In this document: positions 31,253 through 46,920 of the stretch, in pieces | How positions within the stretch are numbered: the stretch's first letter is position 1 | Layout: each line of letters begins with the position of its first letter | From: Thermoproteota archaeon | GTDB taxonomy: Archaea > Asgardarchaeota > Njordarchaeia > Njordarchaeales > Panguiarchaeaceae | Direction: 5' to 3' | Length of the DNA: 64,000 bases | Assembly (NCBI GenBank): GCA_024720975.1 | Contig: JANJXX010000005.1 | Span: forward strand, 7,059-71,058 | The notes under the pieces: generated by a model | The model's database searches: none | Seen by the model: the letters and a program-made list of their open reading frames with translations, nothing else | What the model was told of the DNA's origin: nothing | Program-made: the position numbers and the translations under genes

Positions 31253-31559
31253 TTTACGCAGATACCTTATCAGTTATGACACCTAGCTAATCAAACTACG
31301 CCTCTCAATGGTTCGAAAAGCTTGAAAAACCCAAACCATAAAATTGACAAAAATTCGTCAAATATCCTTAAGTACACAGTAATAAAGCTTTTTTAGACAC
31401 AAGTAGCATTTATCTAGATAGATCTCGATTCAAAGTGATTCGATGAGCCGGTAATTTCCAAATGGTTGAGACTTCTATCGCGGGTTCCCCATAGCCATAT
31501 ATAGATTCTTTGCGCTTTTGTCTAAGTAGGTAACATGTTGGACTGTTTTCTTTGTGAAC

Positions 31560-31568
31560 TTTTTAAGC
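31560..31568 (+). promoter_or_regulatory. TATA-like box of repeated RNA element, copy 1
   Basis: TTTTTAAGC lies within the block GTGAACTTTTTAAGCTATTTTAGCTAC. That block is conserved upstream of all three copies. Confidence 0.5.
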
Positions 31569-31660
31569 TATTTTAGCTACTACAGATACATAGAAACAAA
31601 AGAGAAACCAGTGAGCATAAAGATTTTTATACCTTAATTCTATATGAACTGATATTAGGC

Positions 31661-31861
31661 TCTCGCCTCAATGACGGCGTGGTGGTCATCAGAGGCGGGA
31701 GGATACACCTGTCTCTCGAGGCGGGCTTAGTGGTGCCCGTCGATGTAGCTCCCGATGACCCTGCGACAAATGAGCAGGTGCTGAGGGAGAAGCCCGTGTC
31801 GAGTATATCTATGATATTTAAAATACCTAAACAAACCCAAATAAGCGACACGGACAACCAC
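31661..31861 (+). ncRNA. Unclassified GC-rich structured RNA element, copy 1
   Basis: ~200-nt GC-rich island in AT-rich DNA, homologous to 34402-34602 and 46576-46779(-). Shows conserved and compensatory stems. Its ORFs are not preserved in copy 3. Confidence 0.6.
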
Positions 31862-31954
31862 TTAATGATGATTTTATATTTGTCTTAAGCTACTGCAATA
31901 TCATAGTTGATTTCCTAATGTATTATTGTTGGAATAGAGTATCGACTGAGTCCC

Positions 31955-32653
31955 GTGGTGAAATTAATGAGCGAACAGAAAGGGGAAGAATCCAAAATGT
32001 CAGAAGAATCGCAAGTCGAGGCGGAAGCTGAGAAGATCCTCAAAGAACTTGAAGCTGGCGAGATTAAGCTTTTTGATAGATGGAGTTGGAAAAACATAGT
32101 TGTAAGGGATCCGGGTCTTGTAACGTATATATCTTTAAAACCTATGTATGTTCCTCATAGCTTTGGTAGGCACGAAAAAACGCGTTTTGCGAAGGCGAAA
32201 GTTAATATAGTTGAGAGATTGATAAATAGATTAATGACACCGGGCAGAGAAAAGGGTCAACCTAAGACCGGCAGGTTTACTGGTAAAAAACTTCATGCCA
32301 TGAAAATTGTAGAGGCAGCATTTGAAATAATAGAAAAATTGACAAAGGAGAATCCTATACAGGTATTCGTGAGAGCAGTGGAAAATGTTGCTCCGAGAGA
32401 GGACTATACATCTTTCAGAGTTGCAGGAATTATCAAGAAATTTGCAGTTGATATAAGTCCGCAGAGAAGGGTAGATTTAGCTCTTAAATTCATAGTATTA
32501 GGTGCTAGGCAACGTGCATGGAGATCACCAATTAGTATAGCCGAAGCCCTTGCAGAGGAGATAATTGAAGCAGCAAAGGGTCCAGATAATGTAAACTCAA
32601 TAGCCGTAAGCAAAAAGATAGAATTAGAAAGGATAGCAGAAGCCGCCAGATGA
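31955..32653 (+). CDS. rps7: 30S ribosomal protein S7 (uS7)
   Basis: Strong archaeal S7 pattern (VERLINRLM.PGR..GKK..A..IV..AFEII...T..NPIQV.V.A.EN..PRE). Start ambiguous (GTG 31955 or ATG 31967). Confidence 0.9.
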   Translation: MVKLMSEQKGEESKMSEESQVEAEAEKILKELEAGEIKLFDRWSWKNIVVRDPGLVTYISLKPMYVPHSFGRHEKTRFAKAKVNIVERLINRLMTPGREKGQPKTGRFTGKKLHAMKIVEAAFEIIEKLTKENPIQVFVRAVENVAPREDYTSFRVAGIIKKFAVDISPQRRVDLALKFIVLGARQRAWRSPISIAEALAEEIIEAAKGPDNVNSIAVSKKIELERIAEAAR

Positions 32654-32655
32654 TA

Positions 32656-33408
32656 CTATTCCACAGTTTTCAAAAATTCTTCTATTGCTTCTATCGTTTG
32701 CTTAAGCATAGCTGAGAATAGTCTTTCCCCCTTTTCCCTTGATGCTCTACTAGGATAGCCCAGCGCACCAGTATCGGTAAATTCTATTGTTCTCCAGGGA
32801 TATATAGCTCTGCTCTTGCTTCGAAAATCGAGATGTTTACCCAAATGACGGAGCTTTGGATCGATAACCTTGTTAAGACGTACTAGATTAGGTTCTTCGA
32901 ATAGCATTATGGATGTTTCAAATTCACAAGCATGTCCCCATACATCGCTCTCAAGAATTTCTTTTACTGTGTCGTTAATTAGTTCCCAAGGATTAATAAG
33001 GAGAGCATTGATCTTATATTCAAATTTCAATTTCCTAACAGCTTCTGAAAGTGCATTAGTATTACCCCCATGTCCATTTATAATTATTATGGCTCGAACG
33101 CCATGCTTTGCTAAACTATTTGCAATTTCACAAACGAGTCTGATAAGAGTCTCAGAGGAAATTGTTATTGTTCCTGGAAAATCCATGTGATGCTCAGAGA
33201 CACCATAATACACCGGAGGAAGAACAAGTATAGAACCACCAAAATTCTTGGCTACTTCCAGGGAGAATTTGTATGCACTTATTGTATCAGTTATTAAGGG
33301 CAAATGATATGCGTGTTGTTCCGTGCTTCCGATGGGTAAGATAGCGGCTCTTAATCTGGGAATAGCATTCTTGATTTCGTCCCAACTACAGAATCCCCAT
33401 TCATGCAT
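32656..33408 (-). CDS. Creatininase-family amidohydrolase
   Basis: GSTEQHAYHLP and INGHGGN motifs. Confidence 0.8.
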   Translation of the reverse strand: MHEWGFCSWDEIKNAIPRLRAAILPIGSTEQHAYHLPLITDTISAYKFSLEVAKNFGGSILVLPPVYYGVSEHHMDFPGTITISSETLIRLVCEIANSLAKHGVRAIIIINGHGGNTNALSEAVRKLKFEYKINALLINPWELINDTVKEILESDVWGHACEFETSIMLFEEPNLVRLNKVIDPKLRHLGKHLDFRSKSRAIYPWRTIEFTDTGALGYPSRASREKGERLFSAMLKQTIEAIEEFLKTVE

Positions 33409-33569
33409 ATAAAATCCCTAGCACTAATTGCAGAATAGTTAGTCTCAAAATAAGATCCAGTAGAGTTTCTTTCAACTGAGAACAGAATTCAGCACTTAAT
33501 TGCTCGTATTTTAAAAAGGTTATTTGGACTTAACAACCTAGCAAATATACCATTGAACGGTGAAAAACA

Positions 33570-33887
33570 ATGGCCGGAACAGAAGCTCCCACAATATATG
33601 TTGGAAAGAAGCCCATCGTTAGGTATCTAATGGCCGCGATTTCAATCCTATTGAATGAAAAGCCCGAAAAGCTCCGCATTAGTGCACGCGGGCGCATGAT
33701 AAGCAAGGCTGTCGATGTAGCAGAAATGCTCAAAACACGCTATTTGCCTGGGATAGTTGATATAGATGCGATAAAAACTGGTACAGAAGAACTTCAAGAT
33801 CCCAACCAACCCGGTAGAGTTAACAGAGTCTCAACAATAGAAATCACCCTAAGAAGAACCGGCGAAATAGGAATTTCTAGAAGATAA
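33570..33887 (+). CDS. albA: Chromatin protein Alba
   Basis: IYVGKKPIVRYLMA......LRISARGRMISKAVDVAEML...RVSTIEI is the canonical Alba sequence. Confidence 0.9.
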   Translation: MAGTEAPTIYVGKKPIVRYLMAAISILLNEKPEKLRISARGRMISKAVDVAEMLKTRYLPGIVDIDAIKTGTEELQDPNQPGRVNRVSTIEITLRRTGEIGISRR

Positions 33888-34297
33888 AAACTAGCTTCTG
33901 TGCAGTCAGCCACTCTTTTTTCATTCCTCATTTATCAGACTATTATATTAATTTCTGCTGCCTTCATCTATCGAACTAGGATGACGACCCAATCCTAGTA
34001 ATCTAACAATAGTAATACGTCTAGAACCCTTAACTTTAGATTAACCACTCTCTAATGTGGGTATACTCCACTTCTCCGGCTATTGGTCGTTATTCCGGAT
34101 GATATCCTACAGTTCATATCCTAATAGGAACCCAGCCAGCGCAAAGAAACTTTACCAGGCCGTGCCATAAGCTTTTATAATCATAGCCTTCCAGAGAGCG
34201 TAGTACCCTTGAAAAATCTCCAGCCTTTGGGTTAAAGCAAGGTATATATGCCTATAACTTAAGATAAAAAGTAACAAGACTGTGTCTTCCGTAAAAG

Positions 34298-34306
34298 TTT
34301 TTAAGC
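34298..34306 (+). promoter_or_regulatory. TATA-like box of repeated RNA element, copy 2
   Basis: TTTTTAAGC within GTAAAAGTTTTTAAGCTGTTTTAGCTAC. Confidence 0.5.
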
Positions 34307-34401
34307 TGTTTTAGCTACTATAGGTACTTGGAATCAGATTCAAGTGCAAGAAATGCGGATTCGAGTTTAACTCACACTACGTAGCTTGCCTAAACCTCTT
34401 C

Positions 34402-34602
34402 TCTCGCCTCAATGACGGCGTGGTAGCCATCAGAGGCGGGAGGATATATGCATACCTCGAGGCGGGCTTAGTGGTGCCCGTCGATGTAGCTCCCGATGAC
34501 CCTGCGATAGATGAGCAGGTGGCGAGGGAGAAGCCCGTGTCGATAATACCCAAGATAATCAAAACACCTGAACAAACCCAAATAAGCGACACGGGCAACC
34601 AC
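34402..34602 (+). ncRNA. Unclassified GC-rich structured RNA element, copy 2
   Basis: Near-identical core to copy 1. The terminal stem GCCCGUGUCG/CGACACGGGC is perfect. The element ends 1 nt before the rps12 stop codon on the opposite strand. Confidence 0.6.
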
Positions 34603-34603
34603 T

Positions 34604-35044
34604 CTATCTCTTCTCTTTCTTCTTGCGGCCAGATACAAGCTCATATAGGGATATTCCATTAACCTTAATTACACGGTATTTTACACCGGGAATATCGCCA
34701 AACGAGCGTCCACGAACTCCTCCTATGGGTTGAATTAGAACCTCATCATGCTCATCAATCATTAAAAGTCCACCGTCATAAGGTACAAAGGCAGTTACAA
34801 TTTTCCCATTTTTCTTTAATTTTACCTTCACACACTTTCTAAGAGCGCCTGTTGGTTTTCGTGCCTCGACTCCAACTTTTTTGAGGACAATCCCTAACGC
34901 CTGCGGAGCTCCCTCAAGTGGATCAAACTTCTTCTTGAATCTTAGGACTCTCCTCTTATAATCGAGGTCAGCCCATCGTGCTTTACTCCTCTTTTTCCTC
35001 AGTATCCTTACTGCAAACTCTCCCCTTGGTGATTTCGTTACCAT
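34604..35044 (-). CDS. rps12: 30S ribosomal protein S12 (uS12)
   Basis: [40 protein letters not shown]....[27 protein letters not shown]. The ATG at 35044 is preferred to the ORF start at 35116. Confidence 0.9.
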
Positions 35045-35305
35045 TTCTCCTTCCTCATTCTTATACATGCTTGCTAGGTAGTACACTATCATTTCAGGCT
35101 TTTTAAGGTAAGTCATTGCTTCACCTGGTTTGAATATGACCTATCAGCTATAGAGCTCAAGTAGATGGCTTAGTTTAAAGAACTTTAAAGTCGTGGTTAC
35201 CTAAGATACCTTTCCTGCATTGAAGTAAGTCAGAAGAAGATACCCTACTCTAGCTCACTCAATAATCAAGTTTCTCGGCAACCGCTAAGTCTACAAGTCT
35301 AACTT

Positions 35306-35422: not shown

Positions 35423-37057
35423 ATGAAAGCGAAGGCAATAGCAATCCTAAGTTTCCTTCTAGTAGCCGCCCTTACTGCAATAAGTGTAAGCACAGTCTAC
35501 GCAAAAAGCTATAATAAAACGCTTCCCGATTTCTCTGATTTCCTAGAGTCTAGAGACGTGGCTGCTATAATTTACGAATTTGTAGGATCCCTCAGTGCTG
35601 GCAAGGAAACTCCCCAATACAGCTTCTCCGTCGACTCTACAGTTACTAAAATAGAAGTAACCCTCAATATGCCAAGTGGTACTGACTTTGACTTGTCCGT
35701 CTGGGATCCCCAAGGCAGGCGTACTGGAGGCTGGACTTCGACGGATAAGTCTGTAAAAACTCAGATTCCAAATTCGAAATATTCAGGAGACTCAGCGAAT
35801 CCTGAGTGGGTCACTGTAAGTCCTCCTGCAAGTACAGGTACTTGGAAGACTAGTTGTTATGCGTACTCAGGTTCTGGCAACTTCAAGATCACAGTAAAAC
35901 TGTACGTCACGTCAACAAGCCAGTATAAGTACATATTCTCGGGCTCAGTTAGCAGTGGCAAGGATAGCACGCAACACTCATTTAGTGTTCCATCTACAGC
36001 GACCAAAGTTGAAGTAACCCTTAATATGCCAAGTGGTACTGACTTTGACCTATCAGTTTGGGATGCTCAAAACAGGCGTACTGGAGGCTGGACTTCGACG
36101 GATAAGTCTGTGAAAAATCAAATTCCAAACGCGCAGTACTCAGGATACTCAGCGAATCCCGAGAAGATTACCGTAAGCCCTATAGACTCCACGTCAGTTG
36201 GTACTTGGAAGACCAGTTGCTATGCATACTCAGGTTCTGGAACATACACAATAACAGCCGTGGTCACTCTGTCTACTAGCAACGGTGGTGGAAGTAGTGG
36301 AGGCAGTAATGGAGGTAGCAGTGGAAGTGGCGATGGTGTAGTTAGAAAGTGGGCTGTGATAGTTGGTATATCTGACTATAAGGCAATCTCAGACTTGTCA
36401 TACTGTGATGAGGATGCAACGGATTGGTATAACTTCTTAACAGGAAAACTCGGCTGGCCCTCCTCGAACATCAAAGTTTATGGAGATGGCAGTAGTAGCA
36501 GTTATTATCCAAAGTATGATGGTAAGGCGACGGAGTATAACGTCAAGCAGGCATTGAACTGGCTCGTAACAACGGCTGATGCCGATGATATAATCGCATT
36601 CATATCATCCGGACACGGAAGTGGAGACGGTAAAGGAAACTCATACCTCTGCATGTGGGACAGTGGAGCTGGCGAGAACGGTCAAGATGGAAATCTCTGG
36701 GATTACGAGCTAGCAGCAATACTCAAGAATGCAATTGCCGCTAAAATATTCGTATTCCTGGACCATTGCTACTCCGGTGGATTTGGAAACGACTTAATGA
36801 GCATGCCCAATAGTGCTAGAGTATACCTGACGACAACATGTACTGAAAAAGGATATGGATATGATGATCCAAATCACAAAAACGGTGCATGGACATATTA
36901 CTTCCTAGAGTACTCATGGATAGGAAAATATGGAGGATCCCCAGACGTAGCTCTAGAAGATGTATACGCATACGCTAAAAGTGCATACCCATACAGTGGA
37001 GGCGACGCACCACAGCAATTCGATGGAAACCCCAACAGTCCATTCTACCTCAAATAG
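35423..37057 (+). CDS. Secreted clan-CD cysteine peptidase (caspase/legumain-like) with two N-terminal PPC-type beta-sandwich domains
   Basis: Signal peptide, two ~117-aa repeats carrying GTDFDLSVWD, a Gly/Ser linker, then KWAVIVGISDY...SSGHGSG...FLDHCYSGG (His-Gly / Cys dyad order of clan CD). Confidence 0.7.
   Translation: MKAKAIAILSFLLVAALTAISVSTVYAKSYNKTLPDFSDFLESRDVAAIIYEFVGSLSAGKETPQYSFSVDSTVTKIEVTLNMPSGTDFDLSVWDPQGRRTGGWTSTDKSVKTQIPNSKYSGDSANPEWVTVSPPASTGTWKTSCYAYSGSGNFKITVKLYVTSTSQYKYIFSGSVSSGKDSTQHSFSVPSTATKVEVTLNMPSGTDFDLSVWDAQNRRTGGWTSTDKSVKNQIPNAQYSGYSANPEKITVSPIDSTSVGTWKTSCYAYSGSGTYTITAVVTLSTSNGGGSSGGSNGGSSGSGDGVVRKWAVIVGISDYKAISDLSYCDEDATDWYNFLTGKLGWPSSNIKVYGDGSSSSYYPKYDGKATEYNVKQALNWLVTTADADDIIAFISSGHGSGDGKGNSYLCMWDSGAGENGQDGNLWDYELAAILKNAIAAKIFVFLDHCYSGGFGNDLMSMPNSARVYLTTTCTEKGYGYDDPNHKNGAWTYYFLEYSWIGKYGGSPDVALEDVYAYAKSAYPYSGGDAPQQFDGNPNSPFYLK
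35570..36280 (+). repeat. Intragenic tandem duplication (two ~351-354-bp units) encoding the PPC-like domains
   Basis: Units lie at about 35570-35920 and 35927-36280. They share long identical runs such as CCAAGTGGTACTGACTTTGAC and CAGGCGTACTGGAGGCTGGACTTCGACGGATAAGTCTGT. Confidence 0.8.
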
Positions 37058-46550: not shown

Positions 46551-46575
46551 TTAGTAAAACCAGCTAACACCATCA

Positions 46576-46779
46576 GTGGTTGCCCGTGTTTTTTTGTTCA
46601 GGTTTGCCTAGGTGTTTTGGATAACATGAATACTATTAACACGGGCTTCTTCCCCAGTACCTGCTTACCTATCGCGGGTCATAGAGGTACATCGACGGGC
46701 ACCAACGAGCCCGCCTCGGGGGATAGACATATCCTTCTGCTCCCCCTGGTGGCTACTCTACCGTCATTGAGGCGGGACA
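46576..46779 (-). ncRNA. Unclassified GC-rich structured RNA element, copy 3 (most divergent)
   Basis: The reverse complement aligns with copies 1 and 2. Stems are maintained by compensatory changes (GGGGGA/UCCCCC and GCCCGUGUU/AACACGGGC). No ORF is present. Confidence 0.6.
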
Positions 46780-46814
46780 CTTTTTGATTCCAAGTACCTA
46801 TGGTAGTTAAAATA

Positions 46815-46823
46815 GCTTAAAAA
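46815..46823 (-). promoter_or_regulatory. TATA-like box of repeated RNA element, copy 3
   Basis: The reverse complement reads GTAAAGTTTTTAAGCTATTTTAACTAC. Upstream homology to copy 1 continues to 46869. Confidence 0.5.
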
Positions 46824-46920
46824 CTTTACAGAGAAAACAGTCCAAGAGATTTGATGACATAAAAGCGCAGTAGTTGGAGCTTCCTAATAGCATATTGAAG
46901 AAGGATTACTGGAGTATATG

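Follow-up and report, generated by a model that had tools for sequence, protein, structure and literature searches.

Three GC-rich repeats in a hyperthermophilic archaeon are probable protein-less derivatives of an IS607-family element

The 64-kb stretch of archaeal DNA analysed here (contig JANJXX010000005.1 of assembly GCA_024720975.1; hereafter the window) carries three copies of a GC-rich block, which an earlier note on this DNA had read as a new family of structured RNA genes, each with its own promoter and one of them upstream of rps7. We conclude that the three repeats are very probably internally deleted, protein-less derivatives of an archaeal insertion sequence (IS) of the IS607 family, comparable to miniature inverted-repeat transposable elements (MITEs) and palindrome-associated transposable elements (PATEs), which retain the left end (LE) with the transposon promoter and the scaffold of the ωRNA, the guide RNA of TnpB. 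The GC-rich block is made up of the last ~60 codons of tnpB and the 3′ untranslated region (3′UTR) up to the right end (RE), that is, the guide-RNA region of TnpB. Comparison with relatives established the origin, the ends, the mobility and the conserved fold of the copies, in which loss of ~1.7 kb of internal sequence joined the LE and its promoter to an intact scaffold, leaving elements of ~267-325 bp. The repeats thus belong to an ordinary, well-understood class of mobile element and do not represent a new RNA of the cell.

The repeats and their parent element

The block of ~202 nt occurs at 31660-31861 (+), 34401-34602 (+) and 46576-46778 (-), designated copies 1, 2 and 3, and a covariance-model scan of the window returned exactly these three (208.9, 225.2 and 155.9 bits, respectively). 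A 16-mer from the core was found three times in the window against 0.12 expected from shuffled sequence, and a TATA-containing 23-mer from the "promoter" three times against 0.01. The cores have a G+C content of 53-55% compared with 40% for the window; relative to copy 2, identity is 89% for copy 1 and 75% for copy 3, which has several indels. Each core is preceded by the same TATA-containing block of ~60 bp. The three-fold recurrence, the GC-richness and the multiplication of a whole promoter-plus-RNA unit had all been described correctly in the earlier note, and its spacers of ~92, 95 and 35 nt between TATA-like box and core are right if measured from TTTTTAAG. The Rfam search that it had proposed was run and no family matched: the whole window gave no match at gathering thresholds, and between 31400 and 35000 nothing at E ≤ 10 overlapped copies 1 or 2, the ωRNA-type families RAGATH-18 and HEARO included. 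Pfam searches on the small open reading frames (ORFs) over the copies likewise gave no match, and the reading frame there was identified solely by tblastn with the TnpB proteins of relatives. A contig of a hot-spring metagenome-assembled genome (MAG) matches the window at 99.97% identity, its proteins carrying the labels Korarchaeota, Crenarchaeota or Thermoproteota archaeon.

Scanning of a genome collection with the most conserved 26-nt stretch yielded 14 archaeal loci (Ignisphaera, Desulfurococcaceae, Sulfolobales, Staphylothermus, Baldrarchaeum and Njordarchaeota), and a metagenome scan yielded 35 more. At many of these loci the DNA directly 5′ of the core codes for the zinc-ribbon C-terminus of a protein of ~437-476 aa. 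An intact parent of 2,018 bp lies at L081 2325-4342 and encodes a 215-aa TnpA (HTH_17 + Resolvase) followed by a 436-aa TnpB. The parental layout (2.0 kb) consists of an LE starting GAC/T with an archaeal TATA-type promoter, the serine-recombinase gene tnpA, tnpB, and an RE ending in ...GGGCAACCAC. The TnpA of L008 scored 196 bits against the NCBIfam equivalog transpos_IS607 (NF033518, cutoff 110), and the TnpBs of L011 and L008 scored 105 and 106 bits against guided_TnpB (NF040570, cutoff 100). The partner TnpB also matched Cas12f1-like_TNB of Pfam (PF07282), and its sequence matches in the PDB were Cas12f and TnpB chains; its score against the IS607_TnpB "exception" model NF038280 was 30 bits, below 350. 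A protein with a helix-turn-helix (HTH) and a resolvase domain is encoded directly upstream of tnpB at L008, L053, L038, L061, L059, L041 and L081.

The "promoter block" proved to be the LE of the same element, copy 2 here having 98% identity to the DNA in front of the tnpA remnant and tnpB of L011, where the TATA-like TTTTTAAG stands ~47 nt before the tnpA start; remnants of the tnpA HTH persist between LE and tnpB in L011, L015 and L055. All three window cores were aligned by tblastn to TnpB residues ~378-436, with scaffold position 1 at TnpB codon ~381 of 437 and the scaffold end at the RE. Over copies 1 and 2, the ORF on the plus strand has not arisen by chance: it is what remains of the C-terminal TnpB frame, so part of the conservation was inherited from coding sequence.

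TnpB proteins with 85-90% identity are found in MAGs labelled Zestosphaera, Ignisphaera, Acidilobaceae, Bathyarchaeia and Nanopusillaceae. At the DNA level, copy 2 (34401-34602) is 96% identical to L011:478-680 from a Desulfurococcaceae MAG of a different archaeal class, and near-identical copies stand at unrelated sites in unrelated archaeal lineages. This degree of identity suggests recent horizontal transfer of the elements between distant archaea, the host of the window being labelled Korarchaeota/Thermoproteota.

Ends, target motif and fold

The exact ends were read from a natural empty site of copy 2. In two sister-strain records, L073 and L074, the site runs uninterrupted as ...AAGTAACAAG-ACT-CTATCTCTTC... 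(in L073, AAGAC and then TCTATCTCTTCTCTTTCTTC), whereas the occupied site reads ...CAAG-ACT-GTGTC[element]GGGCAACC-ACT-CTATCTC..., corresponding to an insertion of 322 bp directly after the rps12 stop codon. ACT alone is common to both junctions of copy 2, with nothing else duplicated, and more distant members share AC alone, as expected of a serine-recombinase crossover at a core dinucleotide. Comparing the empty with the occupied site revealed no target-site duplication, and no terminal inverted repeats were visible in LE and RE as read by eye, no tool search having been made. Seven sister contigs contain copy 2, and L073 and L074 lack it; the copy is a recent, still polymorphic insertion, and the data fit both its insertion as a short form and its deletion after insertion. 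Copies 1 and 3 were found in every sister contig looked at. For copy 3, the gap between the arginase gene and the gene of the 560-aa protein is 369 nt in five of five sister contigs, so that all five contain it. Copy 1 is intact and fixed, and copy 3 is old and decaying.

Among 24 left junctions with 24 different flanks, position -1 was a purine in every case and position -2 a T in 16, followed by GAC. This GAC is target DNA according to the empty site of copy 2, which reads AAGAC and then the copy 2 flank. TRGAC is therewith a candidate target or transposon-associated motif (TAM)-like sequence, with AC as the putative core. At the other end, all 47 distinct sequences remain similar up to and including CAACCAC, and beyond it their flanks are unrelated. 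The abrupt boundary after GGGCAACCAC (GGACAACCAC in copy 1) noticed earlier recurs in about 45 related sequences from outside the window. Homology stops there because the transposon ends at this point; the predicted guide, which would be transcribed from the flank past the RE, starts with the next nucleotides.

The left boundary of copy 1, previously placed at 31511, had to be moved to 31541/31542 on account of the LE ends and of a break in the sister-strain contig L031 (GCA_024720915.1). To the right, starting at 31541, this contig and the window agree at 99.9% identity; to the left it consists of unrelated DNA absent from the window, which also ends ...ATA before GACT. Either the element end was the site of a rearrangement, or there is another copy elsewhere, or the assembly was joined at the repeat. 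The 9-mer TGCGCTTTT, the reason for the former start at 31511, occurs at 31511-31519 (+) and 46861-46869 (-), 18-21 nt outside the LE of copies 1 and 3, and is absent beside copy 2 and in the L031 flank.

Two comparisons illustrate how short forms arise and move. L015 has the same flanks as L011, whose tnpB is intact, and is hence an in-place deletion of the L011 insertion. L005 and L027 have one deletion junction in common at two different sites, which indicates that short forms were themselves mobilised after deletion. In a Desulfurococcaceae MAG (L026:5977-6256), the RE of a short copy and the 3′ end of a tRNA-Arg(TCG) gene lie 2 nt apart, so that the predicted guide would match the tRNA gene.

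The consensus fold of the ~202-nt scaffold comprises five helices with 40 modelled base pairs, most of which were obtained with RNAalifold from 22 distinct scaffolds, the fifth helix being added by hand from visible compensatory changes. In 47 distinct sequences aligned to the model, 93.1% of cells were paired compared with 39-52% when partners were slid, and 19 of the 40 pairs changed on both sides compared with 11.6 ± 1.5 in shuffles, none of 500 shuffles reaching 19; this alignment was fitted to the model and so favours structure. Compensatory changes in helix 1 and in the terminal stem were already visible in an alignment made with MAFFT only. Helix 2 is invariant and uninformative on covariation, and helix 4 is just 67% paired in the model-fitted alignment because its loop length varies among subfamilies.

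The terminal stem read by eye in the earlier note and its double change between C-G and U-A recur among relatives (C-G in 26, U-A in 10). The proposed pairing of the 5′ CGCCUC with a distal GAGGCGG was rejected in favour of a proximal GAGGCG ~25 nt downstream, which alone covaries: in L059 and L061 the 5′ strand has become CGUGCU, and only the proximal partner changes along with it. Copy 3 can form the distal pairing, solely owing to its mutated proximal strand. Copy 2 contains no non-canonical pair and its minimum free energy (MFE) fold is the consensus (z = -4.4); copy 1 has a single broken pair, a GGAC variant; copy 3 has ~10 broken pairs and an MFE fold that departs from the consensus (z = -2.1).

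Judged from sequence, the block has the layout by which a TnpB ωRNA is defined, in its position, its fold and its sharp end at a transposon boundary with unrelated DNA beyond, as documented in bacteria (PMC8612924) and Sulfolobus (PMC10640517). What had been called an unrecognised structured RNA is therefore structured, with covariation supported in the larger alignment and no Rfam family, but it is the ωRNA scaffold of a non-autonomous IS and not a new cellular family. Association with a transposase or TnpB gene had been named beforehand as telling against a new RNA family, and in relatives the block is the 3′ end of tnpB.

Guide use, short forms and competing explanations

On the IS607 reading, the LE promoter would transcribe through the scaffold into the host flank, as may, in copy 1, another TATA-like box that ends 28 nt before the scaffold, and the 16-20 nt of flank would become the 3′ guide of the ωRNA. 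TnpB acting in trans would bind this RNA and recognise the empty site as a TRGAC-type motif plus guide (for copy 2, AAGAC plus TCTATCTC...), and TnpA in trans would move the element by recombination at the AC core dinucleotide. Recognition of the empty site would favour retention of the element, as for bacterial IS605/IS607. TnpB-biased retention has been demonstrated experimentally in both bacterial families (PMC10055086, PMC10690162). TnpA of IS607 uses a core dinucleotide without target-site duplication, and TnpB prevents transposon loss (PMC10690162); archaeal ωRNA is located at the 3′ end of tnpB (PMC10640517), and protein-less PATE elements often encode ωRNAs that need to be used in trans (PMC10055086).

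Several observations weigh against this reading. By tblastn the 64 kb contains no TnpA and, of TnpB, only three C-terminal remnants, all at the copies, so that their RNA could function only with proteins provided in trans. A search with the TnpB family (175 members) gave no match labelled Korarchaeota as a same-species TnpB, and the two matches that were looked up came from other assemblies. The core dinucleotide is AC, unlike the GG of bacterial IS607, the RNA family has no ωRNA-type match in Rfam, and copy 3 has drifted away from the fold. That the copies are expressed, processed at the 5′ end and used as guides is predicted from the DNA. DNA cleavage by the partner TnpB family is putative and unproven as well, because the catalytic Asp of RuvC-III is replaced family-wide, by Gln in most members and by His in the subfamily nearest the window copies: the motif is N(A/S/V)(Q/H)YVACLNL compared with the canonical NADxNAAxNI (P0001-P0120, L011:509-1822 (-), L008:3628-5058). 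RuvC-I (LVIDIN) and RuvC-II (IVRENL) are conserved in this family. A TnpB census includes archaeal serine-recombinase-linked branches with altered RuvC-III, read as rearranged and probably active (PMC10691335). A conserved Asp 9 residues further down (LNDG) is coded within the first ωRNA helix.

The short forms bear on whether the RNA part matters. Ten independent right-hand deletion end points were collected, of which seven lie ≤20 nt upstream of scaffold position 1, two ~70 nt upstream and one inside the scaffold; the natural end points run from coordinate 1308 to 1434 of the L011 element. As the search pattern required the mid-scaffold, end points beyond it were invisible. The accumulation near the scaffold start is an argument for selection on the RNA part. 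In addition, protein-less elements of ~245 bp were found at eight related loci outside the window, all different sites, with an LE starting GACT, a TTTATAA box and the scaffold ~25 nt later (L039:3406-3569, L040:2558-2721, L058:531-693, L065:2589-2752, L067:3969-4102, L054:290-456, L064:171-338 and L014:4220-4370). At all eight, the first hairpin is strand-swapped to GCCAUCAGGC-UUGU-GCCGAUGACGGC, a circular permutation of the 5′ domain, as compared with the canonical AUGACGGC-loop-GCCAUCAG closed by CGCCUC/GAGGCG. The swapped hairpin retains the same A·C mismatch, and its capping stem varies by subgroup (GGC/GCC, CCC/GGG). Of all the observations, this lineage hints most strongly that ωRNA units without proteins are kept for the sake of their RNA. 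At L064:1-100 the stand-alone element appears to stand right after the first codons (ATGGAGAA/GAC...) of a tnpA of the L053-like IS607 type; its right flank does not continue the tnpA gene, pointing to a more complex history.

Tentatively, and at somewhat less than an even chance, the short forms may be selected "ωRNA-only" mobile elements living off the TnpA and TnpB of full-length IS607-type elements. Repeated stopping of deletions at the first nucleotides of the scaffold, fusing promoter to scaffold, would then mark the 5′ end of the mature RNA, and the swapped hairpin would let the RNA start ~25 nt after the TATA box with the same helix and A·C mismatch. With Gln or His at RuvC-III, such RNAs might guide an enzyme of altered chemistry.

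The copies could instead be inert relics of an IS607-type element, with nothing transcribed or used and the fold reflecting recent descent from functional elements. We regard this as unlikely, though a serious contender: it agrees with the lack of TnpA and TnpB in the window, the visible decay of copy 3, the youth of copy 2 implied by its ~96% identity to a full-length element, and the failure of the TnpB family search to identify a same-species TnpB. Relics do not readily account for seven of ten independent deletions stopping within 20 nt of the scaffold start without cutting in, for the mobilisation of short forms after deletion, for a ~245-bp group that keeps its fold through a swapped hairpin with capping stems differing by subgroup, or for copy 1, which is fixed in all strains and yet has just one broken pair. 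A more elaborate possibility is that the RNAs have been exapted, a nuclease-dead TnpB (RuvC-III Asp to Gln/His) and promoter-fused scaffolds guiding DNA binding or transcriptional control in a TldR-like manner. The family-wide replacement of the Asp and the promoter directly upstream of the scaffold in short forms would suit such a role, and domestication of TnpB into RNA-guided regulators is documented (PMC10705468, PMC10691335). We nevertheless consider it improbable: tnpB and tnpA are still linked within mobile elements whose ends are defined, copy 2 was inserted recently, the guides are adjacent flank without a second target in the window, and conserved RuvC-III replacements have been read as rearranged, probably active sites (PMC10691335).

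The family of host non-coding RNA genes with a cellular function and their own promoters, as envisaged in the earlier note, was suggested by the GC-rich, structured and covarying core, the TATA-like box in each copy, the lack of an Rfam match and the location of copy 1 upstream of rps7. It is already contradicted and highly improbable, since in relatives both blocks are the ends of an IS607-family element, copy 2 has a clean empty site in two sister-strain records, near-identical copies occupy unrelated sites in unrelated archaeal lineages, and the 5′ two-thirds of the block is a remnant of the TnpB reading frame. Least probable of all, and scarcely to be entertained, is a PATE-type derivation from IS200/IS605, with movement by a Y1 tyrosine TnpA via single-stranded DNA. 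TnpB is common to both families, and the L080 contig carries a Y1_Tnp + OrfB element beside the IS607-type one, but in all full-length relatives that have a transposase a serine recombinase is encoded immediately 5′ of this tnpB, the HTH remnants in L011, L015 and L055 are of serine-recombinase type, and the short ACT/AC core shared by the junctions is as expected for serine recombination. Classical MITEs were also considered. The copies are short (267-325 bp), non-coding and multi-copy, but copy 2 has no target-site duplication and no inverted repeats were seen by eye; they are MITE-like solely as deletion derivatives.

The IS607-type derivatives described here resemble four known systems in part only. 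With the IS607/IStron elements of C. botulinum (PMC10690162) the family shares an HTH-resolvase tnpA followed by tnpB, the absence of terminal inverted repeats and target-site duplication, a short core in the target and both junctions, and an ωRNA at the tnpB 3′ end and RE with the flank past the RE as guide, a predicted one here. Unlike them, the window copies lack both genes and reside in a hyperthermophilic archaeon, the core is AC (target ~TRGAC) rather than GG (TGGG), and the TnpB has Gln/His at the RuvC-III Asp. The PATE-like IS200/IS605 derivatives of Geobacillus stearothermophilus (PMC10055086) are likewise minimal, non-autonomous units that keep both ends and the ωRNA and take TnpB from elsewhere; they belong to IS605, with a Y1 transposase and hairpin ends, whereas the window copies are of serine-recombinase IS607 type with the promoter fused to the scaffold. 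The ωRNA of SisTnpB1 from Sulfolobus islandicus (PMC10640517), also a thermophilic archaeon, has a scaffold that is encoded by the 3′ end of tnpB and is conserved as far as the RE, where a variable guide follows, and its TAM is read from the LE flank. That element is of another family with the TAM TTTAA/TTTAT, and its RNA has been shown to guide cleavage, whereas the window RNA is predicted from sequence; the searches made found no sequence similarity between the two. Finally, the RAGATH-18-derived reRNAs of bacterial IS607 TnpBs (PMC11061315) are also structured guide scaffolds downstream of or overlapping tnpB, but RAGATH-18 and the other ωRNA-type families of Rfam gave no score on copies 1 and 2 at E ≤ 10, the present scaffold being a separate five-helix sequence family. 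The present case is set apart by its hyperthermophilic archaeal host, the AC core and TRGAC motif, the RuvC-III variant, an RNA family absent from Rfam and the fusion of promoter to scaffold.

Individual copies, neighbouring genes and significance

Copy 1 as a whole spans 31542-31862 (+), ~321 bp including the ACT of both junctions (31542-31544 and 31860-31862), its limits being set by the L031 break between 31540 and 31541 and the RE end at 31861. Its LE with the transposon promoter (31541-31604) is 85% identical to positions 18-65 of the L011 LE and has the TATA-like TTTTTAAG at 31560-31567. A filler (31605-31659) without blastn match to the L011 element follows; it contains the second TATA-like box, TTTTTATA, at 31624-31631, which ends 28 nt before scaffold position 1, the spacing seen in stand-alone elements elsewhere, and which could be due to chance in this AT-rich segment. 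The scaffold (31660-31861), derived from TnpB codons ~378-435, the 3′UTR and the RE, matches TnpB aa 378-435 at 74% by tblastn. The predicted guide would be the host flank at 31862-31881 (+), upstream of rps7, where homology between the copies ends. An ORF at 31730-31888 (+) is listed as a hypothetical protein of 52 aa in public MAG annotations (L030, L032, L033, L069); it is a frameshifted tail of the TnpB reading frame and unlikely to be a real gene.

Copy 2 occupies 34279-34603 (+), the 322-bp strain-polymorphic insertion plus the shared ACT, with its LE and promoter at 34278-34336 (TTTTTAAG at 34298-34305). A tnpB frame remnant at 34336-34566 covers aa 360-436 and with them the second CxxC of the zinc ribbon (tblastn 92% over 77 aa, E 8e-42), and overlaps the scaffold, so that the "spacer" still codes for TnpB residues 360-380 (RFKCKKCGFEFNSHYVACLNLF). 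The scaffold itself (34401-34602), the best preserved of the three, is 96% identical to L011 and 93% to L081. The predicted guide (34603-34622, +) would run antisense over the stop codon and 3′ end of rps12, called as an ORF at 34604-35116 (-), and equals the sequence after AAGAC in the empty site of L073 and L074. Copy 3, old and fixed, spans 46575-46841 (-), ~267 bp as read from its junctions. Its LE with promoter (46784-46842, TTTTTAAG at 46816-46823) is 85% identical to positions 1-60 of the L011 LE, its scaffold (46576-46778) is degenerate, with ~10 non-canonical pairs and indels, and its predicted guide (46556-46575), beyond the end of homology at 46576, would be the flank just upstream of the 560-aa ORF. 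No second match to the guides of the copies with ≤3 mismatches beside a GAC motif was found in the window.

In the region 31955-35116, rps7 (+) and rps12 (-) are neither adjacent nor co-oriented, unlike in most archaea; a creatininase-family gene and an Alba gene lie between them, and nusA and rpoA2 are not beside rps12. The elements did not cause this arrangement, because it is the same in a record lacking copy 2. An inversion of 31862-34277 that would restore an ancestral rps12-rps7 operon was rejected, the rps12 end in L073/L074 being contiguous with the Alba side and free of any element. Farther along, a direct repeat of ~245 bp (35636-35877 and 35993-36240, 82% identical) lies within a gene for a 544-aa caspase-domain protein (Peptidase_C14, 35423-37057).

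For annotation, these results remove a false lead, since the "new structured RNA family upstream of rps7" consists of transposon ends. For the biology of TnpB, they provide a well-delimited IS607-type system from hyperthermophilic archaea, with ends fixed exactly by a natural empty site, TRGAC with its AC core as the candidate target/TAM, an ωRNA model of 40 base pairs and natural minimal units of promoter plus ωRNA. These would be parts for probing a thermostable TnpB, and the deletion end points suggest a minimal scaffold that could inform the design of compact guide RNAs.

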